A stretch of 19,115 nucleotides of DNA from Minisyncoccota bacterium (GTDB taxonomy: Bacteria; Patescibacteriota; Minisyncoccia; Phycocordibacterales; UBA12079). Where the stretch lies: positions 1-19,115 of the forward strand of contig JAGLLX010000014.1 in assembly GCA_023140255.1 (NCBI GenBank), given 5' to 3'. Shown one piece after another: positions 698 to 19,115 of the stretch; the first letter of the stretch is position 1, and each line of letters starts with the position of its first letter. Made by a program: the position numbers and the translations under genes. Below the pieces are notes generated by a model. The model was not told the origin of the DNA, did no database searches, and saw only the letters and a program-made list of their open reading frames with translations.

Positions 698-723
698 TTT
701 TAGATATATAAACAGGCTACTTC

Positions 724-751
724 AAACAAACAGGTCTTTACCTGTTTGTTT
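724..751. promoter_or_regulatory. Hairpin: 11-bp stem AAACAAACAGG/CCTGTTTGTTT with 6-nt loop, about 25 nt upstream of the minus-strand surface-protein start; function unknown
   Basis: Perfect inverted repeat 724-734 / 741-751 read directly. No flanking T-run on either strand, so it is not an obvious intrinsic terminator. Confidence 0.4.
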
Positions 752-826
752 AATAAATATATGTGTGTACTTCATATTATACCTTGTTTGGTTTTTGCTT
801 TTGTTTTTTGTTTTGGGGATAACTTA

Positions 827-852
827 CGAATGTTTTTTATAAAAAACATTCG
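827..852. promoter_or_regulatory. Perfect 26-bp palindrome CGAATGTTTTTTATAAAAAACATTCG (GAATGTT...AACATTC in everted orientation relative to the ArsR-type boxes); candidate protein-binding site or bidirectional hairpin
   Basis: Every base 827..852 pairs with its mirror partner (827-852, 828-851 ... 839-840). It shares the GAATG/CATTC core with the palindromes at 924-949 and 18768-18793. Confidence 0.45.
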
Positions 853-887
853 GTATTATGTATTAAGTAGTTTTAATAATAAATAGA

Positions 888-919
888 GAGTATTAGTGCA
901 ATCGATTGAACTAATACTC
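888..919. promoter_or_regulatory. Hairpin, 9-bp stem GAGTATTAG/CTAATACTC with 14-nt loop containing an ATCGAT palindrome
   Basis: Inverted repeat 888-896 / 911-919 read directly. Confidence 0.35.
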
Positions 920-920
920 C

Positions 921-950
921 TTGTTCTAACATTCTGCAGAATGTTAGAAT
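921..950 (+). promoter_or_regulatory. Candidate sigma70-type promoter TTGTTC(921-926)-18 nt-TAGAAT(945-950) with an embedded perfect 26-bp palindrome TTCTAACATTCTGCAGAATGTTAGAA (924-949) resembling the palindromes that flank the ArsR gene
   Basis: The -35 and -10 hexamers and the spacer were read directly. The palindrome 924-936 / 937-949 is perfect. Its half-site TTCTAACATTCTG matches TTCTATCATTCTA (18768-18780, 19102-19114) at 11 of 13 positions. Confidence 0.35.
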
Positions 951-961
951 AGTTATGTTTT

Positions 962-1007
962 AAGCCATGCTAAATGGCTCATTAAAATGAGCCGTTTAGC
1001 ATGGCTT
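962..1007 (+). repeat. 46-nt palindromic hairpin element (21-bp stem, loop TAAA, one T:G position that is a G-U wobble only in + strand RNA); REP-like repeat with a second related copy at 11722-11768
   Basis: AAGCCATGCTAAATGGCTCAT-TAAA-ATGAGCCGTTTAGCATGGCTT. Only 975/994 is a non-Watson-Crick pair. The 20-mer AAGCCATGCTAAATGGCTCA recurs at 11722-11741 with one mismatch. Confidence 0.5.
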
Positions 1008-1026
1008 TAGATATGGCTCAAATGAT

Positions 1027-1059
1027 TAAACGGCTACGTTCGTAGCCGTTTAGTTTTTT
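1027..1059 (+). terminator. Rho-independent terminator-like hairpin (12-bp stem AAACGGCTACG..CGTAGCCGTTT) followed by TTTTTT; shares the 10-mer AGCCGTTTAG with the preceding hairpin
   Basis: Stem 1027-1038 / 1041-1052 and T-run 1054-1059 read directly. On the minus strand the hairpin lacks a clean U-run. Confidence 0.5.
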
Positions 1060-1160
1060 AAATTTAAGTTCCACTATTCTTTAATACTTGATACTAAAAA
1101 TCAAAATAATCTAAATTTTTCAAAAAGAGGTCGAAAAATTTGATTATTTTTATTTTTTAG

Positions 1161-3464
1161 TTATTTAGCAACTTTAACCGCTTCAGCAAATTGTACTGAT
1201 AATAATTTAGAAATTCCATCTGATCCCATAGTAACTCCATAAAGAATATTAGCTCGAGACATTGTCTCTCTATTATGAGTAATTAAAATCAACTGAGAAT
1301 GAGAAGATAATTTTTCTATCATATCTCCATATTTTTTAGAATTAGCTTCATCAAGAGCTGCATCTGTTTCATCTAAAATAATGAAAGGTGGAGGTGACAC
1401 TTGTGACATAGCAAATAACAACGCAATTGAAGTTAGAGACCTTTCCCCTCCGGATAACATCTGTAAACCTTTTGTTTTTTTATTAGGCAAAATTACATCA
1501 ACCTCAACCCCTAATTCATCACTTTTAGATTCTTCATTTTCAACTTCATTTACTAATTCTTCATCGCTCACATTAAAATCATCTTTTTTTATTTTAAAAA
1601 TTTTTTCCCTTACTAAACTTAAGTTAGCCTTTCCACCCCCAAACATTAAAATAAAGAATTCTTTAAATTGAGAATTTATTTTTTCTAAACCATTCCGAAA
1701 TTCAATCTCTAATTTTTCTTTCAATTCATTAATTAATTTCAACAAAGACTGAGCAGTCTTTTCTAAATCTTCAATTTCTTTGTTCAAAAATTCATCTCTT
1801 TTTGAAGCTTCTTCATATTCTTTAACCACGTCCTCGCCTGAAAGTCCTCCACTATCCTCAATTAAAACCTTTATCCTTTCTATTTTCTTTAATCTATCAA
1901 CCTGATTTTGTCTATCTTCATTTATAATTTTTTCTTCTTCCAGTTCTAAATCTTTAAACTGAACAGCATCTCGCCCAGCTATAATATAAGATTCATTTAA
2001 TTCCTTCTTATAATTTTCATCAGCGAAGGAGGCTCTTTCTTCTATATTTCGTAAAGAGTTTAACATAGCGTTATGTTCTGTTTGCTGAGCCACAATTTCC
2101 AAAACAGCCAATTCTGCATCTTTATTTAAATCTTTATCTTTTTCTATCACTGTTTTTAAAGAATTATATTTTTCTAAAATAATATTTTCCTTTTCTGCTA
2201 ATTCTTTGATTTGTTTTTCTATTTCTTTTTTTTCTATTTTCTGTTCTTCAATTTTTTTAGTTGATTCATCTTCTACCTTTTTTAATAATTCAACAGGCTT
2301 ATCCTCTAATGAAGAAGATCGAGCTATTAAGTATCTTGATATAAATTGAGAAAAAGAATCTTTTATTTTAGCTAAGGCTTCCCTAATTTGACTAATATCT
2401 TCTAAATTATGAATTAATTTAATCTGTGAACTTATATCTAATTCTAATTCCTTTATTTCCTCTAAATCAACTTCTATTACCTCATTAGAGTTATCCCTCT
2501 TAATTTCTTCAACAAAGGTATTTTCTAAAGCAGAAATTATCCCTTCTACTCTCCCTAGTTTAAAAGTAGTCTGATCTTTTTCTTTTCTCAATTCATTTAA
2601 TTGAAATTTTAAATCGTTTAATTCAGTAGGCCTGTTATCTTCTTTTTGGGCATTTTCTAAAACATTTTTTGCTTCCTGAGCTTTAAGTTCTAATTCAGCT
2701 AATTTTTCTATTAATGGTTTTTTCTCTTTAATATTTTTTTCCTGCCAATAATCTATATAGGTTTTTTCTCTTTTAAAATATTCTCTATATAAAACACCTA
2801 AATCCTTTCTCATTTCTAAAGTCTTTTCAATTTTATTAATCTGCCTTTTTAAAAATTTTAAATGAGGAGCATTTTCTTTTCTTAAAGACTGAACTTCTTC
2901 TATATTTTTTTGAACTTTTTCAAGTTTTTTTTCACTAACAATTCTCTTATATTGATAAATCTTTAATCCCAGAGCCTCTTCTACCATAACTCTCCTTTCT
3001 TTTGAATTAACATTTAAAATCTTATCAGCCTCTCCTTGAGAAATCATATGATGTCCCGAAGACCCAATATTTGCTTTTGCTAATAATTCTGAAATATCTT
3101 TTAAGCGTACAACAGATTTATTTAAAAAATACTGATTCGTTCCATCTCTGTGGACATGTCTTTCTACAATTACTTCATCAAAATCAATATCTAAAAATCG
3201 CTTTGTATTATCAAAAACTATTTTTACGCTAGATCTATTCCCTCTAGGAACTGTTTGAGAACCATTAAAAATTAAGTCTTCCCCTCTTTTCCCTCTCATT
3301 GATTTAATTGACTGTTCTCCCAAAACAAAACGAAAAGCTTCTGCCACATTTGATTTTCCTGAACCATTTGGACCAACAATAGCAGACACACTAGAGTTAA
3401 ATTCTAAATTAGCTTTTTTACCAAAAGACTTAAAGCCACTTATTTCTAACGATTTTAAATACAT
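1161..3464 (-). CDS. smc: SMC-family chromosome-condensation ATPase, compact form (767 aa) with no recognisable hinge domain
   Basis: N-terminus MYLKSLEISGFKSFGKKANLEFNSSVSAIVGPNGSGKSNVAEAFRFVLGEQS carries the Walker A motif. The SMC-specific motif ISQGEADKILNVNSKERRVMVEEALG is present. A long charged coiled-coil middle follows. The C-terminal head has LSGGERSLTSIALLFA (ABC signature) and FIILDETDAALD (Walker B). No glycine-rich hinge segment was seen in the middle. Confidence 0.8.
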   Translation of the reverse strand: MYLKSLEISGFKSFGKKANLEFNSSVSAIVGPNGSGKSNVAEAFRFVLGEQSIKSMRGKRGEDLIFNGSQTVPRGNRSSVKIVFDNTKRFLDIDFDEVIVERHVHRDGTNQYFLNKSVVRLKDISELLAKANIGSSGHHMISQGEADKILNVNSKERRVMVEEALGLKIYQYKRIVSEKKLEKVQKNIEEVQSLRKENAPHLKFLKRQINKIEKTLEMRKDLGVLYREYFKREKTYIDYWQEKNIKEKKPLIEKLAELELKAQEAKNVLENAQKEDNRPTELNDLKFQLNELRKEKDQTTFKLGRVEGIISALENTFVEEIKRDNSNEVIEVDLEEIKELELDISSQIKLIHNLEDISQIREALAKIKDSFSQFISRYLIARSSSLEDKPVELLKKVEDESTKKIEEQKIEKKEIEKQIKELAEKENIILEKYNSLKTVIEKDKDLNKDAELAVLEIVAQQTEHNAMLNSLRNIEERASFADENYKKELNESYIIAGRDAVQFKDLELEEEKIINEDRQNQVDRLKKIERIKVLIEDSGGLSGEDVVKEYEEASKRDEFLNKEIEDLEKTAQSLLKLINELKEKLEIEFRNGLEKINSQFKEFFILMFGGGKANLSLVREKIFKIKKDDFNVSDEELVNEVENEESKSDELGVEVDVILPNKKTKGLQMLSGGERSLTSIALLFAMSQVSPPPFIILDETDAALDEANSKKYGDMIEKLSSHSQLILITHNRETMSRANILYGVTMGSDGISKLLSVQFAEAVKVAK

Positions 3465-3942: not shown

Positions 3943-4092
3943 TCCTGTTAGAAATTTGGAGAAAATAAATTATTTTTTCAAAAATACTAAATACGGGAAC
4001 AAAAAATTATCAGTTTAATTTAAAGATGTTTATTAAAAGTAATATGGGACTTGTCCCGTTAGAGATACTTTTAATACAGTGTCTCTAACAGA
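3943..4092 (+). promoter_or_regulatory. Upstream module of topA, homologous to the tyrS upstream module (16635-16748). Distal motif TCCTGTTAGAAATTTGG (3943-3959), an AT-rich conserved block CAGTTTAATTTAAAGAT..TTATTAAAAGTAA, then GGGACTTGTCCCGTTAGAGATAC and an imperfect inverted repeat whose 3' arm (4079-4092) ends at the topA ATG
   Basis: 4046-4078 (GGGACTTGTCCCGTTAGAGATACTTTTAATA) is identical to the minus-strand sequence upstream of tyrS. Arm CCCGTTAGAGATAC (4055-4068) pairs with GTGTCTCTAACAGA (4079-4092) over 11-12 positions, including one G-U wobble. Confidence 0.5.
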
Positions 4093-6321
4093 ATGAAAAA
4101 ATTATTAATTGTTGAGTCACCAGCAAAATCAAAAACTATATCAAAATATTTAGGAAGCGACTATGTCGTGGAATCTTCTGTTGGACATATTAGAGATATT
4201 CCTAAATCAAACTCTAAAAAAGCAAACGCTGTTGATATTGAAAATAATTTTAAGCCTAATTACGAAGTAATTAAAGGTAAGGAAAAAATAATAACAACTC
4301 TAAAAAGAGAAGCTAAGAAAGCTGACGAAGTTTTGCTCGCAATGGACCCAGACCGTGAAGGAGAAGCTATCGCTTGGCATATTGCTGAAGTTTTGAAATT
4401 ACCTAATGCACAAAGAGTAGTCTTTAATGAAATTACAGAAGAAGCTGTTCAAAAGGCTATTTTACACCCACGAGATATTGACCAAGATTTAAGAAAAGCA
4501 CAAGAAGCTCGTCGTGTTTTAGACAGACTTTTTGGTTATGGATTAAGTGGATTAATTTGGAAAAAATTACGTTACGGTTTATCAGCTGGAAGAGTTCAGT
4601 CCCCTGCTTTACGAATCTTAATGGAACGAGAAAGATTAATTAGAGCTTTTGAACCTGAAGACTACTGGACAATTACAGCCGAAGTTAAAGATCAAACAGG
4701 AAATATGTTTTCTTTAATTTGTTCTGAAGAACCTAGAGATGAAAAGAAAGTAGCTAAAATCACAAAAATTGCTGAGCAAGAAACTTGGAAAATTTTAGAA
4801 ATCAAAGAAACTAACACAAAGAGATCTCCTCGAGCTCCTTTTATAACATCAACATTACAACAAACAGCTAGCTCTAGATTAGGATACTCCCCTAGCCAAA
4901 CAATGATGCATGCACAAAGGCTTTATGAAGCTGGTTATATTACTTATATGAGAACTGATAGTATTACTTTAAGTGCTAATGCTCAAAAGCAAGCTCAAGA
5001 ACTAATTACAAAAGATTACGGAAAAAAATATTTAGAACCAAGAGTGTTTAAATCAAAATCAAAAAATGCTCAAGAAGCCCATGAAGCAATTCGTCCTTCT
5101 AATTTATCTACAGCTAATGCAGGAAAAACAGAAGAACAACAAAAACTATACTCTTTAATTAGAAATAGAACTTTAGCTTCTCAAATGAGTGATGCTAAAT
5201 TATTAAAAACTAAAATAATTGCGTCTGTTGGGAAAAGAGGAAAAGAAGACATAGATTTTCCTTATTTTGAAATTAATGGATCAAGATTATTATTTGATGG
5301 TTGGTTAAAAATTGACCCTGCTGCACGAGGAGAAGATGTTGAATTACCAGAACTTCAAACTGAAGATATCTTGAGTTTACTTAAAATATCAACTGAGGCT
5401 AAACAAACAACTCCTCCAAATAGATATTCTGAAGCTTCTTTAATTAAAGAGTTAGAAAAAAGAGGTTTAGGTCGTCCAAGCACCTATGCTACAATTACCC
5501 GTACTCTTTATGACAGAGGTTATGTAGAAAAAATAAATAAAGCCTTACATCCAACAGACACAGGTGATGCTGTAAGCTCATTTCTAGAAAATCACTTTGA
5601 AAATTATATTAGTGATGATTTTACTGCCGAAATGGAAAATGAATTAGATGAAGTAGCAGAGGGAAAAGGAACTTATGAAAAAGTTTTAACTGATTTTTAC
5701 ACACCTTTTGTTAAAGAAATTAAAAACAAAGAAGGAATTGAAAAAATATCTAATCTGGGTCCTGCTGAAGATAAATACAAATGTCCAAAATGTGGAGCAG
5801 GAATGGTTTATAAACTAGGAAAATCTGGTAAATTTATTTCTTGTGAAAAATTCCCTGACTGTGAAGGTGCATTAACTCTTGAAGGTAAAGAAATTGAAGG
5901 TCCAAAAGAAACTGGGGAAAAATGTCCTGATTGTAAAGACGGTAAATTAGTAATTCGTGAAGGGAAATTTGGAAAATTTGTTTCTTGTTCTAATTATCCT
6001 AAATGCAAATTTATTAAAGAAGATGAGGGAGAGAAAAAAAAGAAAATGACAGGAGTAAAATGTCCTGATTGTGAAGATGGAGAAATGATGGAAAGACGAG
6101 GTCGTTTTGGAATTTTTTATTCTTGTTCAAATTATCCAAAATGTAAAAATGCAATTAAAGCAAAACCCACTGGTAAAATTTGTGATTACCCGAGTGATGC
6201 AAAAGCAGGACAACCTTGTGGAGCTTTAATGATGGAAGGAACTAAGACTATTCCAGAAAGATGCTCTAATAAATCTTGTCCTAACCATAACCCACATAAA
6301 TTAAATAAATTAAAGGAATAA
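4093..6321 (+). CDS. topA: DNA topoisomerase I (type IA) with four C-terminal C4 zinc-ribbon motifs
   Basis: The N-terminus MKKLLIVESPAKSKTISKYLG matches the E. coli TopA N-terminus and the Toprim DPDREGEAIAWH motif is present. The C-terminus has repeated CPxCx..C..C ribbons: CPKCG..SCEKFPDC, CPDCKDG..SCSNYPKC, CPDCEDG..SCSNYPKC and a fourth C4 cluster. Confidence 0.95.
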   Translation: MKKLLIVESPAKSKTISKYLGSDYVVESSVGHIRDIPKSNSKKANAVDIENNFKPNYEVIKGKEKIITTLKREAKKADEVLLAMDPDREGEAIAWHIAEVLKLPNAQRVVFNEITEEAVQKAILHPRDIDQDLRKAQEARRVLDRLFGYGLSGLIWKKLRYGLSAGRVQSPALRILMERERLIRAFEPEDYWTITAEVKDQTGNMFSLICSEEPRDEKKVAKITKIAEQETWKILEIKETNTKRSPRAPFITSTLQQTASSRLGYSPSQTMMHAQRLYEAGYITYMRTDSITLSANAQKQAQELITKDYGKKYLEPRVFKSKSKNAQEAHEAIRPSNLSTANAGKTEEQQKLYSLIRNRTLASQMSDAKLLKTKIIASVGKRGKEDIDFPYFEINGSRLLFDGWLKIDPAARGEDVELPELQTEDILSLLKISTEAKQTTPPNRYSEASLIKELEKRGLGRPSTYATITRTLYDRGYVEKINKALHPTDTGDAVSSFLENHFENYISDDFTAEMENELDEVAEGKGTYEKVLTDFYTPFVKEIKNKEGIEKISNLGPAEDKYKCPKCGAGMVYKLGKSGKFISCEKFPDCEGALTLEGKEIEGPKETGEKCPDCKDGKLVIREGKFGKFVSCSNYPKCKFIKEDEGEKKKKMTGVKCPDCEDGEMMERRGRFGIFYSCSNYPKCKNAIKAKPTGKICDYPSDAKAGQPCGALMMEGTKTIPERCSNKSCPNHNPHKLNKLKE

Positions 6322-6650: not shown

Positions 6651-6688
6651 GCTTATAACTATTTATTAAACCCTACATCATTTCTATG

Positions 6689-6715
6689 AATAAATTTTGC
6701 AAAGCAAAATTTATT
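6689..6715. promoter_or_regulatory. Perfect 12-bp inverted repeat AATAAATTTTGC-AAA-GCAAAATTTATT after secG; a weak AT-rich terminator or an operator
   Basis: Arms 6689-6700 / 6704-6715 read directly. Confidence 0.35.
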
Positions 6716-6753
6716 CTTAAATCTTATTTCTTAAATCTTAAATCTTAAATCTT
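6715..6753 (+). repeat. Tandem heptamer repeat (TCTTAAA)n, about 5.5 units (TCTTAAA TCTTATT TCTTAAA TCTTAAA TCTTAAA TCTT), ending 6 nt before the ATG of the solute-binding-protein gene
   Basis: Units at 6715-6721, 6722-6728, 6729-6735, 6736-6742, 6743-6749 and a partial unit at 6750-6753. Confidence 0.7.
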
Positions 6754-8579: not shown

Positions 8580-10358
8580 ATGGATAAAAAAATAACTACA
8601 AACACAAGAAGAAAAACTCAAACACACAAGAAACCTAGAAAAAGTTCTCAATTTTCAAAAATTAAAAAAGTCGTGAAAATACCTGAACCTGAAAACATAA
8701 GAATTATTCCTTTAGGTGGATTTGAAGAAGTTGGGAAAAACATGGTAGCGATAGAAGACAAAAATAATATCATTATTTTTGATGCTGGAGTTCAATTTAC
8801 TTCTGAAGAAAGTGCACCTGGAATTGATTACATTCTTCCTAATACAAAATATTTAGAAGAACGAAAAAATAAGATTAAAGGCATTATAATCACTCATGGA
8901 CATTTAGATCATATAGGAGGAATACCTTTTATTATGGATAGAATTGGAAACCCCCCTCTTTATGCTAGTAATCTAACTACTCTTACCATTAAAAAAAGAA
9001 TGGAGGAATTTCCAACTAAACCTAAAATTAAATATAATATAGTTGAGGCTGGAGAAAAAGTAAAAATTGGAGATTTAAAAGTAAAATTTTTCCCTGTTAC
9101 TCATTCAATTCCAGAAGCTTTAGGTTCTTCAATAGAAACGCCTCAGGGGAATATAGTAATTACAGGGGATCTTAAACTAGAACATGAAGACGGTATCCCT
9201 TCAGATAAAGAATTAAAAACTTGGACAGCTTTAAGTAAAGATAAAAATTTACTTTTAATTGCTGATTCTACTAATGTTGAAAAACCGGGATATTCTATGC
9301 CTGAAAAAGTAGTTTATGACAGCATAGAACAAATTATTAAAAATACTAACGGGAGATTAATTATCGGAACTTTTGCATCTCAATTTGAAAGATTAATAAA
9401 AATTGTTTCTATAGCAGAGAAATACAATAAAAAAATAATTTTGGAAGGAAGGAGTATAAAAACTAATATGGAAATAGCAAAACTTTCTAAAATATTTATG
9501 CCTAAAAAAGGAACTATTATTTCATCAAATGAAATAAAAAATTATTCACCTGATAGATTAGTCATTTTAGCGACAGGTTCACAAGGTGAAGAATTTGCGG
9601 CCTTAATGAGAATGGCAATTAAACAACATAAAAATATATTCTTAAATGAAAGAGATACAGTAGTATTATCCTCTTCTGTTATTCCTGGAAACGAGGTTTC
9701 TGTTAGAAGACTACAAGATAACCTTTATAGACATGATTTAAAAGTAATTCATTATAGAGTAGCTGACGTTCACTCTACTGGACATGGAAATGCTCAGGAA
9801 TTAGCTTGGATAAATACTCAAGTAAATGCTAAATTTTTTATTCCTGGATACGGGCATCATTCTATGCTTAAAATTCATGCCGGAATAGCAAAATCAATAG
9901 GAGTTCCTGCAGCAAATATAGTTGTTCCTGACAACGGAAGTCTAATTGAAATAACAAAAGATAATAAAATAAAAGTCTTAAAAGAAACAGCCCCTTCAGG
10001 GCTAATGATGGTAGACGGATTTTCTATCGGAGATATGCAAGAAGTTGTTGTTAGAGATAGACAAAATCTTGCTCAAGACGGGATATTCGTTGTTATTGCT
10101 ACTTTAGATATAAAATCAGGTGAATTAAGAAAATCACCTGATATTATATCAAGAGGTTTTATCTACCTTCGTGAATCAAAAGATTTACTAAAACAAGCTC
10201 GCTATCTTACAAAAAAAACAGTGGAAGGTAATGCTAAAAAAATGAAACCTATTGACTTTGATATCATTAAAAAAGAAGTGGCTGATAATGTAGGAAGGTA
10301 CTTATTTCAAATGACTAATAAAAAACCAATTATAATTCCTGTTATTTTGGGAGTGTAG
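8580..10358 (+). CDS. rnj: Ribonuclease J (metallo-beta-lactamase / beta-CASP family) with an N-terminal lysine/arginine-rich extension of about 38 aa
   Basis: IRIIPLGGFEEVGKNM and the HGHLDHIGG zinc-binding motif are present, and the beta-CASP and C-terminal domain order is conserved. Confidence 0.9.
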   Translation: MDKKITTNTRRKTQTHKKPRKSSQFSKIKKVVKIPEPENIRIIPLGGFEEVGKNMVAIEDKNNIIIFDAGVQFTSEESAPGIDYILPNTKYLEERKNKIKGIIITHGHLDHIGGIPFIMDRIGNPPLYASNLTTLTIKKRMEEFPTKPKIKYNIVEAGEKVKIGDLKVKFFPVTHSIPEALGSSIETPQGNIVITGDLKLEHEDGIPSDKELKTWTALSKDKNLLLIADSTNVEKPGYSMPEKVVYDSIEQIIKNTNGRLIIGTFASQFERLIKIVSIAEKYNKKIILEGRSIKTNMEIAKLSKIFMPKKGTIISSNEIKNYSPDRLVILATGSQGEEFAALMRMAIKQHKNIFLNERDTVVLSSSVIPGNEVSVRRLQDNLYRHDLKVIHYRVADVHSTGHGNAQELAWINTQVNAKFFIPGYGHHSMLKIHAGIAKSIGVPAANIVVPDNGSLIEITKDNKIKVLKETAPSGLMMVDGFSIGDMQEVVVRDRQNLAQDGIFVVIATLDIKSGELRKSPDIISRGFIYLRESKDLLKQARYLTKKTVEGNAKKMKPIDFDIIKKEVADNVGRYLFQMTNKKPIIIPVILGV

Positions 10359-11675: not shown

Positions 11676-11710
11676 ACAAACCTGCCGGCATAGGCAGGTT
11701 TGTCATTTTT
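11676..11710. terminator. Bidirectional rho-independent terminator between the convergent MFS gene and aspS: 11-bp stem (AAAAACCTGCC/GGCAGGTTTGT) with A-run upstream and T-run downstream
   Basis: Stem 11676-11686 / 11693-11703 with loop GGCATA. + strand tail CATTTTT (11704-11710). The reverse strand reads hairpin then GTTTTTG. Confidence 0.6.
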
Positions 11711-11721
11711 AGTCTTATTTT

Positions 11722-11768
11722 AAGCCCTGCTAAATGGCTCACTTTTTTGAGCCATTTAATTTTTTAGC
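11722..11768 (+). repeat. Second copy of the REP-like element (AAGCCCTGCTAAATGGCTCA...), here a 10-bp hairpin TAAATGGCTC/GAGCCATTTA with a T-rich loop, followed by ATTTTTT
   Basis: The 20-mer at 11722-11741 matches 962-981 with one mismatch. Hairpin arms 11731-11740 / 11749-11758. Confidence 0.45.
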
Positions 11769-11788: not shown

Positions 11789-13213
11789 TTAATTTTCTAC
11801 ACTATTATCAAACTTAATTTTAAGTTCTTTCAATTGTGCTTCTGATATATTAGCAGGAGAATTCATCATTAAATCCCTTCCTTCTCCTGTCTTCGCGAAA
11901 GGAATAACTTCACGAATAGAAGATTCTCCTAATAAAATTGTGACTAAACGATCAAGGCCCCAAGCAATTCCACCATGAGGAGGAGTTCCGTATTTCATAG
12001 CTTCTAAGAAATATCCAAAATTATTTTGCATTTCCTCATCAGAGTACCCTAATATCTCTAAAACGCTTTTCAAAGCCTCCAATTTATGATTTCTGATACT
12101 TCCTCCCCCTATCTCAAATCCATTCAAAGCAACATCGTACTGAGTGGCAATAATTTCCCCCACATTTTTTTTAGCCATTAAGTCATCCATATATTCATCC
12201 TTAGGGGCTGAAAATGGATTATGAGTAAAAGTCCATTCTCCTTCTGCTTGAGGATTATCTGAGTCTTTTGTTTTTTCAAAAAAAGGAAAATCAACTACCC
12301 AACAAAAAGCTAGCAAATCTGAATTATTCTTATCCTTTCTTAAATCAGGTCTATCAGTTCCATATTTTTCCATAGACTCTTTATAACTAATAACAGGAAA
12401 TGGCTTTTCTTGAATAGTTTTTTCAGGAAAATATTTTTCTACTATTCTAATAAGCAACTCTTCGTTTAATTTCATTATTTCTTCTTGGGTAGCAAAACTC
12501 ATCTCTAAATCCATTTGAGTAAATTCTGGTTGTCTATCACTTCTAGTGTCCTCATCTCTAAAACATTTAACTATTTGAAAATATCTTTCAAACCCGCCCA
12601 TCATCAAAAGTTGTTTGTATTGCTGAGGCGCTTGAGGAAGAGCATAAAAAGTCCCAGGATAAACCCTCGAAGGAACCACAAAGTCCCTTGCTCCCTCTGG
12701 AGTTGATTTTGATAGAATAGAAGTCTCAATTTCTGTAAAATCTTTTCTTTCTAATTCATCTCGAATAAATTTAACAATCTTTCCTCTCATTTTAATATTT
12801 TTATTCATCCGAGACCTTCTTAAATCTAAATATCTATATTTTAAACGATTTTCTTCTCCTATTTCATGCCCATCAGACAAAACATCAAATGGTGGAGTTT
12901 TTGCTTCATTCAAAACTTTTATTTCTAGAATTTCAATTTCTAATTCTCCATTCAATTCGTCTGCATTTACCATTTTTTCAGGTCTTTTGTTTACCTTTCC
13001 TTTTATTTCTAAAACCCATTCAGGACGAATTTTATTAGCTATTTCGCTTGCTTCTTGGTGGTTAGGCAGAGCTACCATTTGCACCATCCCAGTTCTATCT
13101 CGCAAATCAATAAAAATTAATTTCCCATGATCTCTACGAACATTCACCCACCCCAAAATCGTAACTTCTTGCTCAATATTATCTTTCAAATCTTTTATAT
13201 ATGTTCTTGTCAT
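11789..13213 (-). CDS. aspS: Aspartate--tRNA ligase, bacterial-type catalytic core, apparently lacking the GAD insertion domain (474 aa)
   Basis: Class II motifs QAPQQYKQ (QSPQ-like), FRDEDTRSDRQPEFTQMD and GGGSIRNHK. The segment between DRPDLR and VVDFPFFE is short, where the E. coli enzyme carries the GAD domain. Confidence 0.9.
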   Translation of the reverse strand: MTRTYIKDLKDNIEQEVTILGWVNVRRDHGKLIFIDLRDRTGMVQMVALPNHQEASEIANKIRPEWVLEIKGKVNKRPEKMVNADELNGELEIEILEIKVLNEAKTPPFDVLSDGHEIGEENRLKYRYLDLRRSRMNKNIKMRGKIVKFIRDELERKDFTEIETSILSKSTPEGARDFVVPSRVYPGTFYALPQAPQQYKQLLMMGGFERYFQIVKCFRDEDTRSDRQPEFTQMDLEMSFATQEEIMKLNEELLIRIVEKYFPEKTIQEKPFPVISYKESMEKYGTDRPDLRKDKNNSDLLAFCWVVDFPFFEKTKDSDNPQAEGEWTFTHNPFSAPKDEYMDDLMAKKNVGEIIATQYDVALNGFEIGGGSIRNHKLEALKSVLEILGYSDEEMQNNFGYFLEAMKYGTPPHGGIAWGLDRLVTILLGESSIREVIPFAKTGEGRDLMMNSPANISEAQLKELKIKFDNSVEN

Positions 13214-15422: not shown

Positions 15423-16634
15423 TTATTTCTTTAATCTAATAATTTTTCTTCCCAATTTCAATAAAATTGAATCTTCGTTATTAAAATCTAGCTGATACTT
15501 ATAATCAGTAATTTTTTCTTCTCCAATTTTTACAGCTCCTTCATCTACCTTTCTTCTTGCTTCACTTTTAGAACAAGCTAAATTTAATCCAACTAATATT
15601 TCCAAAATATCTTTTCCTTCTTTCAAACTAATTTCCTGAATATTTTCCGGAACCCCTTTGTTTTGGAATTGAATTTTAAAATTTTCTTCAGCTTTTTGTG
15701 CTTCTTCAGTATTATAAAAAATTTCTACTAAATTAAAAGCTAACTCCATCTTCAAATCTCGAGGATTTACAGAACCATCTTTTATTTTTTTTCTCATCAC
15801 TTCTATTTCTTCTAATGGTTTGTTTGTTATTAATTCAAATGTATTAGCTATAAACCCATCTGACAAAGACATTACAATCCCATATATATTTTCTGGTTTT
15901 TCATCCAAAAAGATAGCATTTCCTTCTGATTTACCCATTTTCTTTCCTACATCATCAGACAAAAGCTTCATTGTTAAAATGAATTTTTCTCGTTTATTAA
16001 TTGTCTTCTGTAAATCTCTTCCTCTCATCATATTGAACATCTGATCATTTCCTCCTATTTCTAAATCAACGTCCATTGCCACAGAGTCATAAGCCTGAGC
16101 TAAAGGATACAAAAACTCATGGAGATAAATAGGCTTTTCATCTTCTAATCTTTTCTGAAACATATCTCTTTGTATCATCTGTTGTACAGTAAAATGAGAA
16201 GATAGTTCAATTAAATCTCTAAAATTTAATTTATCGTTCCATTCACTATTATATTTTATCTCAGCTGGATTTTCTCCATCAAAATTTAAAAAAACTGAAG
16301 CTTGTTTTTTATAATGTTTTGCATTTGCTTCAATTTCCTCCTTGGTTAATTTAGGACGTGCAGCACTTTTATCTGTTGGGTCACCAATTAATGCAGTAAA
16401 ATCCCCCACTAAAAAAATTACCTTATGACCAAGTTTCTGGAATTCTGATAGTTTTTTTATTGAAATAGCATTTCCTATATGCAAAGAAGGTGCCGTAGGA
16501 TCATATCCACAATACAGCTTAATTTGTTTACCTGACATCAAAAGTTTTTTTAATTCTTCTTTTTCTGAAAAGATTTGTTCTACCCCCTTAGTTAAAATCT
16601 CATCTATAGCTTTTTCATCTGTATTTATTTTCAT
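15423..16634 (-). CDS. tyrS: Tyrosine--tRNA ligase with C-terminal S4 domain
   Basis: LYCGYDPTAPSLHIGN (HIGH) and KMGKS motifs. The N-terminus aligns with the E. coli TyrRS N-terminus. The C-terminal S4-like RNA-binding segment is present. Confidence 0.9.
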   Translation of the reverse strand: MKINTDEKAIDEILTKGVEQIFSEKEELKKLLMSGKQIKLYCGYDPTAPSLHIGNAISIKKLSEFQKLGHKVIFLVGDFTALIGDPTDKSAARPKLTKEEIEANAKHYKKQASVFLNFDGENPAEIKYNSEWNDKLNFRDLIELSSHFTVQQMIQRDMFQKRLEDEKPIYLHEFLYPLAQAYDSVAMDVDLEIGGNDQMFNMMRGRDLQKTINKREKFILTMKLLSDDVGKKMGKSEGNAIFLDEKPENIYGIVMSLSDGFIANTFELITNKPLEEIEVMRKKIKDGSVNPRDLKMELAFNLVEIFYNTEEAQKAEENFKIQFQNKGVPENIQEISLKEGKDILEILVGLNLACSKSEARRKVDEGAVKIGEEKITDYKYQLDFNNEDSILLKLGRKIIRLKK

Positions 16635-16748
16635 CCCGTTAGAGATACTTTATTAAAAGTATCTCTAACGGGACAAGTCCCTTACTTTTAATAACTATCT
16701 TTAAATTAAACTGGTAATTTTTAGCCCCGCCAAATCTCTAACGGGATA
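16635..16748 (-). promoter_or_regulatory. Upstream module of tyrS, homologous to the topA module. A perfect 14-nt inverted repeat CCCGTTAGAGATAC (16635-16648) / GTATCTCTAACGGG (16659-16672) with a 10-nt AT loop abuts the tyrS start codon. Upstream of it are GGGACTTGTCCC, the conserved AT-rich block, and a distal third copy of the motif (minus-strand TCCCGTTAGAGATTTGG at 16731-16747)
   Basis: Reverse complement of 16632-16681 is GGGACTTGTCCCGTTAGAGATACTTTTAATAAAGTATCTCTAACGGGATG. The first 32 nt are identical to 4046-4077. The block CAGTTTAATTTAAAGAT(A/G)(G/T)TTATTAAAAGTAA is also shared. Confidence 0.5.
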
Positions 16749-18766: not shown

Positions 18767-18794
18767 ATTCTATCATTCTATAGAATGATAGAAT
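18767..18794. promoter_or_regulatory. Perfect 26-bp palindrome TTCTATCATTCTA|TAGAATGATAGAA (28 bp with flanking A/T) just downstream of the ArsR gene stop; candidate ArsR-family operator and/or minus-strand terminator hairpin for the regulator gene
   Basis: 18768-18780 pairs perfectly with 18781-18793. On the minus strand the hairpin is followed by TTTTAAAAT. The same half-site recurs at 19102-19115. Confidence 0.5.
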
Positions 18795-18808: not shown

Positions 18809-19093
18809 TTAAAAAGTTTTTATAAAAGATACAAATCTTTTACCATATGGAGAAAGTTTATGAGAAACTGGTTTACCAATATACTGTTTATTTAATAAAC
18901 CTGCTAAAACAAGTTTTTCTGTATGCTGAGCAACAACTTTGTAATCAGTCTTTAGTCCTTCAGCTATATCAAAAAGACTAGAACCTTTATTTTTTTCAAT
19001 AAAAAGCAAAATGTCTATTCTTCTATGATTAGCAGGACCTTTAAAAAATCTTTCTAGTCTTTTTCCTTCTCTTTGGTTTTTAGTTTTCTTCAT
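18809..19093 (-). CDS. ArsR/SmtB-family winged-helix transcriptional regulator (94 aa, no cysteines, so probably not a thiol-metal sensor)
   Basis: FKGPANHRRIDILLFIEKNKGSSLFDIAEGLKTDYKVVAQHTEKLVLAGLL matches the ArsR HTH pattern (DPTRL.IL..L...E..V.DLA..L..SQS.VSHHLK.L..AGL). Zero Cys residues. Confidence 0.8.
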   Translation of the reverse strand: MKKTKNQREGKRLERFFKGPANHRRIDILLFIEKNKGSSLFDIAEGLKTDYKVVAQHTEKLVLAGLLNKQYIGKPVSHKLSPYGKRFVSFIKTF

Positions 19094-19101
19094 ATCTTAT
19101 A

Positions 19102-19115
19102 TTCTATCATTCTAT
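19102..19115. promoter_or_regulatory. Second copy of the palindrome half-site TTCTATCATTCTAT, 9 nt upstream of the ArsR-gene start codon; runs off the window; likely autoregulatory operator overlapping a TAGAAT -10
   Basis: Identical 14-mer to 18768-18781. On the minus strand it reads ATAGAATGATAGAATATAAGAT then ATG, with TAGAAT 7-8 nt before the ATG (leaderless geometry). Confidence 0.45.

Follow-up and report, generated by a model that had tools for sequence, protein, structure and literature searches.

A regulator-type palindrome and two terminator-type hairpins between smc and a surface-protein gene in a Patescibacteria contig

Positions 924-1059 of the DNA analyzed here (the window, 19,115 nucleotides of a Patescibacteria contig of the Paceibacteria type with ca. 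30% G+C) contain a palindrome followed by two hairpins, each of which is far beyond chance. The reading that we favor, albeit tentatively, is that of an orphan regulator site and a tandem terminator, which belong to a mosaic of hairpins along the edge of an inserted island. The palindrome would be an orphan site bound by the ArsR-fold regulator of 94 aa whose gene is 18 kb away, with dimers of the regulator sitting on it, and the hairpins at 951-1018 and 1024-1059 would be tandem structures of the terminator type that face the + strand. Transcription of the + strand would begin at the TAGAAT of the palindrome or further upstream; the nascent RNA would then fold hairpin 1 and stop at hairpin 2 before antisense entry into smc. 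A short + strand RNA ending at ca. 1059 is plausible from the sequence. In our judgement any such RNA of ca. 100-110 nt is likely a by-product of insulation and not a gene product. Binding, promoter activity and termination at 924-1059 are what we infer from the features described below.

The features of the locus are listed in Table 1. Other genes in the window are topA, secG, RNase J, aspS, trpS and tyrS; the window contains no tRNA or tmRNA genes. The spacer next to smc holds 7 of the 14 long intergenic palindromes of the window. It is bordered on its other side by the gene for a secreted CBM_4_9 (CBM/LamG) surface protein, which starts at 697 on the - strand and runs off the window, and the first + strand gene near 924-1059 begins only at 4093. 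The A+T-rich hairpin at the end of smc is the probable terminator of smc itself. Elsewhere in the window, an inverted repeat of 98 nt (90% identical) connects 4002-4099 with 16628-16722 and reaches up to the topA and tyrS start codons. This repeat contains a 12-19-bp hairpin (GTTAGAGATAC…GTATCTCTAAC) and has no Rfam match; one public scaffold stops within it, at window position 4093.

Table 1. Positions of the features discussed in the text (window coordinates; a dot marks features without strand).
Feature	Position	Strand	Remarks
Spacer between smc and the CBM/LamG surface-protein gene	698-1160		463 bp, between two - strand genes
26-bp palindrome CGAATGTTTTTTATAAAAAACATTCG	827-852	.	perfect; in the segment replaced in strain L006
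32-bp palindrome GAGTATTAGTGCAATC/GATTGAACTAATACTC	888-919	.	neighbor of the orphan palindrome, part of the hairpin mosaic
Candidate promoter TTGTTC-N18-TAGAAT	921-950	+	overlaps the palindrome; putative, read from sequence
Orphan copy of the regulator's palindrome, 12-2-12	924-949	.	TTCTAACATTCT GC AGAATGTTAGAA; perfect palindrome
Hairpin 1	951-1018	+	inner stem 962-1007, 22 pairs; outer stem 951-960 with 1009-1018, 10 pairs (4 G·U)
Hairpin 2, intrinsic terminator	1024-1059	+ only	stem 1024-1055, T6 1054-1059; terminator scan
A+T-rich hairpin with - strand T-run	1093-1161	-	inverted repeats; T-run read from sequence
smc	1161-3464	-	stop at 1161
Hairpin 1 paralogue	11716-11765	+	terminator between convergent MFS and AspRS (aspS) genes
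Palindrome copy just downstream of regulator gene	18768-18793	.	
94-aa ArsR/SmtB-fold winged-helix regulator gene	18809-19093	-	no cysteine
Half-palindrome upstream of regulator gene	19102-19115	.	cut by the window end

The palindrome TTCTAACATTCTGCAGAATGTTAGAA is perfect over its 26 bp, as the initial annotation had stated. The kinship with the palindromes at the regulator gene that was proposed at the same time also holds; 11 of the 13 positions of the half-sites are identical and all copies belong to the same sequence family. With a relaxed form of the pattern the window is matched only at 924-949 and 18768-18793, and 200 shuffled sequences gave no match. The palindrome had further been described as an operator placed between the two hexamers of a promoter. 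Both hexamers are indeed present (TTGTTC at 921-926 and TAGAAT at 945-950, with an 18-nt spacer), but the candidate -35 is weak. It matches TTGACA at three of six positions, the -10 matches at five of six, and with 8 of 12 consensus positions in total the pair falls below the threshold of the promoter scan and is absent from its list. That a palindrome of this family can carry a -10 follows from the gene of the regulator itself, where TAGAAT precedes the ATG by 7 nt (contig L001).

The assignment of the regulator to the ArsR/SmtB fold was confirmed by a comparison of the family profile with the PDB, which returned HlyU (5e-9), CadC, ArsR, CzrA and SmtB. The family is tightly conserved and 35 of its 44 members match PF01022; the window protein alone scores below the curated cut-offs (HTH_24, 19 vs 21.9 bits; NCBIfam HTH_metalloreg, 21.8 vs 55). 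Neither an alpha-3 Cys motif nor an alpha-5 His/Asp/Glu site for a metal or metalloid is present in the 94-aa sequence. The protein ends right after the wing and resembles in this respect the non-metal members of ArsR/SmtB. In a longer public contig (L001) the complete site upstream of the gene is a perfect palindrome of 48 bp, which includes the ATG of the regulator; the window ends at 19115 in the exact center of this palindrome. The palindrome lies 5-8 nt before the ATG of the regulator here and in L098, L102 and L030, and the protein would thus bind at its own promoter. The same contig L001 contains, at 9006-9815 and hence shortly past the right end of the window, two T4SS-pilin-like genes (TrbC/VirB2-type) directly upstream of the regulator and on the same strand; in the strain variant L004 a different gene precedes this pair.

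A paralogue of the regulator, wHTH2 (97 aa, 36% identical), is found at 11982-12349 of L248 (GCA_030636105.1), a contig with RNase R and in all likelihood from the same organism as the window. Its gene stands between two copies of another perfect palindrome, ATTATGTTATTATGCATAATAACATAAT, whose design follows the same plan. The gene after wHTH2, at 12426-14525 of L248, encodes a giant LamG-type protein and probably continues into positions 1-697 of the window. Because gene and palindrome co-occur across phyla, and because the paralogue has its own palindrome, there is a strong case from sequence comparison that 924-949 would be bound by the 94-aa regulator.

The long hairpin and the + strand terminator that had been noticed downstream of the palindrome were both confirmed by folding, and the terminator also by the terminator scan. 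Hairpin 1 has a folding energy of -44.7 kcal/mol on the + strand and of -31.9 kcal/mol on the - strand. The stem of hairpin 2 comprises 14 pairs, of which five are G-C and two are G·U on the + strand only, and the T6 run starts inside its last two pairs. It thus has, on the + strand only, the G+C-containing stem followed by a T-run that defines a Rho-independent terminator. Together the two hairpins reach -64.5 kcal/mol on the + strand (z = -13) versus -48.9 kcal/mol on the - strand, on which they lose 7 pairs and are without a T-run. The pair 975/994 is U·G on the + strand and C·A on the - strand, as annotated. The same is true for all seven non-Watson-Crick pairs of the hairpins and for the pair 923/950, which are G·U on the + strand and C·A on the - strand. 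Under a symmetric null, in which either outcome is equally likely, an asymmetry of 8/8 has a P of ca. 0.004; strand-biased mutation could be responsible for part of it. The preference for the + strand is in this way supported by all eight wobble pairs as well as by the T-run. The words said to be shared between the first hairpin and the terminator were found in part: AGCCGTTTAG occurs at 990 and 1044 and ATGGCTCA at 975 and 1012, but the second ATGGCTCA is in the linker and not in the terminator.

Hairpin 1, together with 35 nt of its 5' flank, is duplicated at 11716-11765, where 24 nt from the left arm and flank are 96% identical. Between the convergent MFS and aspS genes, two + strand terminators stand in tandem (11676-11758), of which this copy is the second; it has no adjoining palindrome or promoter. 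The relative L125 (smc 81%) has it in the corresponding position with a compensatory change from T:A to C:G; a compensatory change was seen only in this terminator copy. The stem TAAAYGGCTCA…TGAGCCRTTTA has at least 120 matches in metagenomes; among those listed, most are flanked by an A-run and a T-run and several are directly beside the ends of tRNA genes. A rough estimate gives ca. 100 chance recurrences of so short a stem among the terminators of such a collection, and only stems that either have AAGCC-N4 as a covarying outer stem or adjoin a hairpin 2 were counted as the hairpin 1 family. The stem family AAAYGGCT...AGCCRTTT is used elsewhere in this genome and in relatives, and related genomes contain similar arrays of long hairpins from a common repertoire. 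Hairpins 1 and 2 are lineage-typical, terminator-type modules of this stem family. Short motifs are also common to intergenic regions of different Paceibacteria. These are GTCAAAAGTC/TAAAGTC repeats and AAATTTGCAAAGCAAATTT hairpins, found in L006, L126 (21920-21960), L141 (7700-7900 and 8760-8785), L127 (5738) and at 6685-6719 of the window. Judged from their sequences, this suggests that different Paceibacteria may draw on a common repertoire of spacer modules.

The 463-bp spacer is missing from the three relatives L125, L126 and L127, in which smc is 81%, 73% and 67% identical. In those with 81% and 67% identity a convergent RNase R gene follows smc within 58 and 14 bp, respectively; the relative with 73% identity has an SpvB/RHS island after smc instead. 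The block that was inserted between smc and RNase R probably consists of the cassette of the second regulator, the giant LamG/CBM gene and the spacer. The spacer also varies between strains. Window positions 823-859, i.e. 37 nt including the palindrome at 827-852, are replaced in the variant L006 (4067-4201) by 135 nt with three other hairpins, one of which is a related palindrome centered on CAATCGATTG like the one at 888-919. A public scaffold from the same strain stops at position 1025, two bases into the stem of hairpin 2; assemblies break at such structures. As read from these sequences, the locus appears to be a young, recently assembled hairpin mosaic. That a relic of the RNase R terminator is preserved here, RNase R being convergent with smc in relatives, is conceivable but unsupported; the RNase R gene of L248 keeps its own bidirectional terminator (ca. 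11945-11980).

The initial annotation had interpreted the locus as a dedicated gene for a small RNA, and a true gene of this kind is the alternative that we weighed first. It would have TTGTTC-N18-TAGAAT as its promoter and the palindrome as its operator, and its product, repressed by the regulator, would be a functional RNA of ca. 100 nt, made up of hairpin 1 and the terminator, that acts on other targets. The locus has its own terminator, and G·U pairs and T-run are on the + strand only. An ORF of 20 aa or more is absent from 950-1060, which agrees with the annotation, and the palindrome can hold a -10 as it does at the gene of the regulator. However, conservation and covariation were not found for the locus, which is absent from the three relatives examined; hairpin 1 duplicates an ordinary terminator, and the -35 is weak. 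A search of the window against Rfam 15 at gathering and at permissive thresholds gave no meaningful match, the best sub-threshold matches being unrelated hairpin families. The four wobble pairs of the outer stem (953-959) and the pair 923/950 sit at or upstream of the proposed start at ca. 957, and if the pairing of the outer stem, which opens at 951, matters, the RNA must begin at or before 951.

The search for homologues of the hairpin pair, which the annotation had suggested as a check, was informative in the relative L141. Its assembly (FLOH01) also encodes a regulator with 81% identity. L141 has a stem of the hairpin-1 type, a GGCTCA word, an identical hairpin 2 stem (AAACGGCTACG/CGTAGCCGTTT) and, 38 nt from the hairpin pair, an orphan palindrome. 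The spacing from hairpin to hairpin is 32 nt in both genomes and the unit is likewise located between two - strand genes. All three parts thus recur together, which favors a small RNA gene, but their order differs. Since the palindrome of L141 is 3' of the hairpins, a fixed unit of promoter followed by hairpins is not conserved. Additional, weak evidence for a small RNA comes from terminators within 200 nt of palindromes of this family, of which 26 face outward and 12 inward; these counts include false positives in coding sequences. Taken together, the data do not support a dedicated small RNA gene and we consider it unlikely.

In a second alternative, to which we give a rather low probability, the palindrome is a distal operator of the giant surface-protein gene on the - strand, the smc transcript carries the hairpins as 3' structures and no + strand RNA is made. 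The palindrome is 227 nt upstream of the start of this gene at 697. Two more palindromes in the spacer are potential sites for other regulators, and probably this same gene has the second regulator cassette at its other end. Against this, the only good -10 on the - strand (TATAAT, 775-780) is ca. 150 nt downstream of the palindrome, which overlaps no - strand promoter, and the hairpins lose pairs and have no T-run on the - strand.

A scan of public genomes with TCTANCATTCTNNAGAATGNTAGA, in which each species was represented by one genome, found at least 131 copies of the palindrome with the exact core in at least 117 loci, mostly from many classes of Patescibacteria; sets of several copies occur also in two Phycisphaerae MAGs, one MAG labelled Gammaproteobacteria and one Rickettsiales MAG. 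The usual form of the palindrome is longer, ACATTCTAACATTCT-NN-AGAATGTTAGAATGT, and among the matches listed other genomes most often have the TTCTAAC variant. In about 34 of the 117 listed loci a homologue of the 94-aa protein is encoded right beside the palindrome. Among these regulator-adjacent loci, 16 have the stop codon of the gene (…K-T-F-stop) inside the palindrome; about 10 carry a pair of copies spaced 310-352 bp, one on either side of the gene, which is also the arrangement in the window.

A third explanation, to which we give as low a probability as to the second, is that the elements are repeats at the DNA level, similar to REP or MITE sequences, which were dispersed by duplication or insertion and have no local role in transcription. 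In its favor, the remaining copies occupy intergenic regions of all kinds, including at least 16 convergent ones, and stand beside unrelated genes. Three MAGs contain at least 14, 9 and 5 exact copies, and in some genomes the palindrome is the center of a longer repeated element and multiple copies share longer flanks. In the MAG CAZVCF01 (L032, L045, L049 and L084), for example, it is in the center of an A+T-rich inverted-repeat element of ca. 150 nt, which is present in at least four copies and looks MITE-like. The intergenic hairpin arrays with shared motifs that are common in related genomes, as well as the breaks of the assemblies at these sites, also agree with this explanation. It is opposed by the strand asymmetry of the wobble pairs, by the small number of copies in this organism (3 in ca. 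44 kb), by the absence of a transposase nearby and by the absence of the palindrome from the viral collection. The latter result, 0 copies, also speaks against a phage origin.

Several other roles of the palindrome were considered and rejected. A conserved regulon is not apparent, since the flanking genes show no kinship; clustering left 131 singletons, and 72 genes are spread over 70 Pfam families. A parS-like centromere, which a weak match to AspA had suggested, is at odds with copies that are unclustered and spread over many contigs in the multi-copy genomes. A DNA-uptake sequence was considered for AAACGGCT, which occurs 3 times in 19 kb where 0.6 are expected and 0 times in a further 10 kb, a density much too low for such a role. 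A portable leaderless promoter does not explain the family either; an ATG at the end of the palindrome opens at least 100 codons in 15 of 208 cases, which is not above a fair background that allows for in-frame extensions. Stop codons inside the palindrome are in excess, with 36 observed versus 9.5 expected, and much of this excess may come from the regulator genes. An attenuator formed via the shared stem words (990-999 with 1026-1035, and 987-994 with 1012-1019) can be dismissed, since there is no + strand gene downstream for it to control.

Individual loci have other transcription units near a palindrome. L054, from the closest relative in GTDB, has at 1330-1600 a TTGACT-N17-TAATAT promoter that is separated by ca. 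70 nt from an orphan palindrome. The ca. 230 nt after this promoter show long-range pairing without matching Rfam and are a candidate non-coding RNA. Two relatives, L098 (7460-7680) and L249 (10290-10600), have a TTGAAA-N17-TATAAA promoter and tRNA-His after the downstream palindrome of the regulator gene, and this unit closes with a CTAAAC…GTTTAG-T-run terminator. A flank in L098, AGTTATGTT, matches positions 951-959 of the window.

To our knowledge, gene regulation in CPR/Patescibacteria is almost unstudied. The motif is absent from the searchable literature, which also contained nothing relevant on transcription-factor motifs in CPR. A pair of regulator and site that is nearly invariant over many classes of Patescibacteria would offer in this situation a concrete and testable handle. 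Its useful features are that the site brackets its own gene, that paralogues have different palindromes and that orphan sites exist. The specific small RNA candidate matters less; if real, it would be a rare case of a repressor-controlled small RNA in these organisms. The self-bracketed cassettes of regulator and palindrome with their orphan copies are the lead of greater interest. A more far-reaching reading, which we regard as speculative and quite improbable, is that self-bracketed cassettes with ArsR-fold proteins of 90-100 aa are of an undescribed kind, widespread in Patescibacteria and present also in some MAGs of Planctomycetota and Proteobacteria. The palindromes of paralogues would differ in sequence and follow the same design, two 8-bp direct repeats, inverted. 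The cognate palindromes would have spread to orphan positions, in some genomes within elements of ca. 150 nt, and would serve there, bound by the regulator, as portable promoter or insulator modules; the one at 924-1059 would have captured terminators and become a regulated small RNA.

The locus can be compared with four known types of systems. It is similar to small RNAs under the control of Fur (RyhB) or LexA in that a putative operator overlaps the candidate -10 of a short, structured RNA that would have no ORF and end at an intrinsic terminator. In contrast to these, the locus is not conserved, its RNA body copies a terminator hairpin, and it is without a known target or an identified single-stranded seed. 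With tandem Rho-independent terminators that shield adjacent genes from antisense or divergent transcription, it shares the G+C core of the stem, a T-run on one strand and a second hairpin just upstream. The pair in the window differs in having no + strand gene upstream; the only candidate sources of a transcript are the palindrome itself or a divergent start from a neighboring promoter.

The REP/REPIN-RAYT system and the BIMEs of E. coli also have dispersed intergenic palindromes and a gene flanked by two copies, and as in BIMEs the spacers are mosaics of several hairpin families that are common to different genomes. The flanked gene, however, encodes a 94-aa DNA-binding protein of the ArsR fold and not an HUH (Y1) tyrosine transposase, and the genomes seen contain tens of copies at most. 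ArsR/SmtB autorepressors such as SmtB, CzrA and CadC, or HlyU as a non-metal example, bind 12-2-12 inverted-repeat operators. The regulator in the window resembles them as a small winged-helix protein with a 12-2-12 palindrome, one copy of which covers its own -10 and start codon. Unlike them, it has no cysteine or metal-site motif, a second copy of its palindrome is at or after the stop codon so that the gene is bracketed, and near-identical orphan copies stand beside unrelated genes in several phyla.
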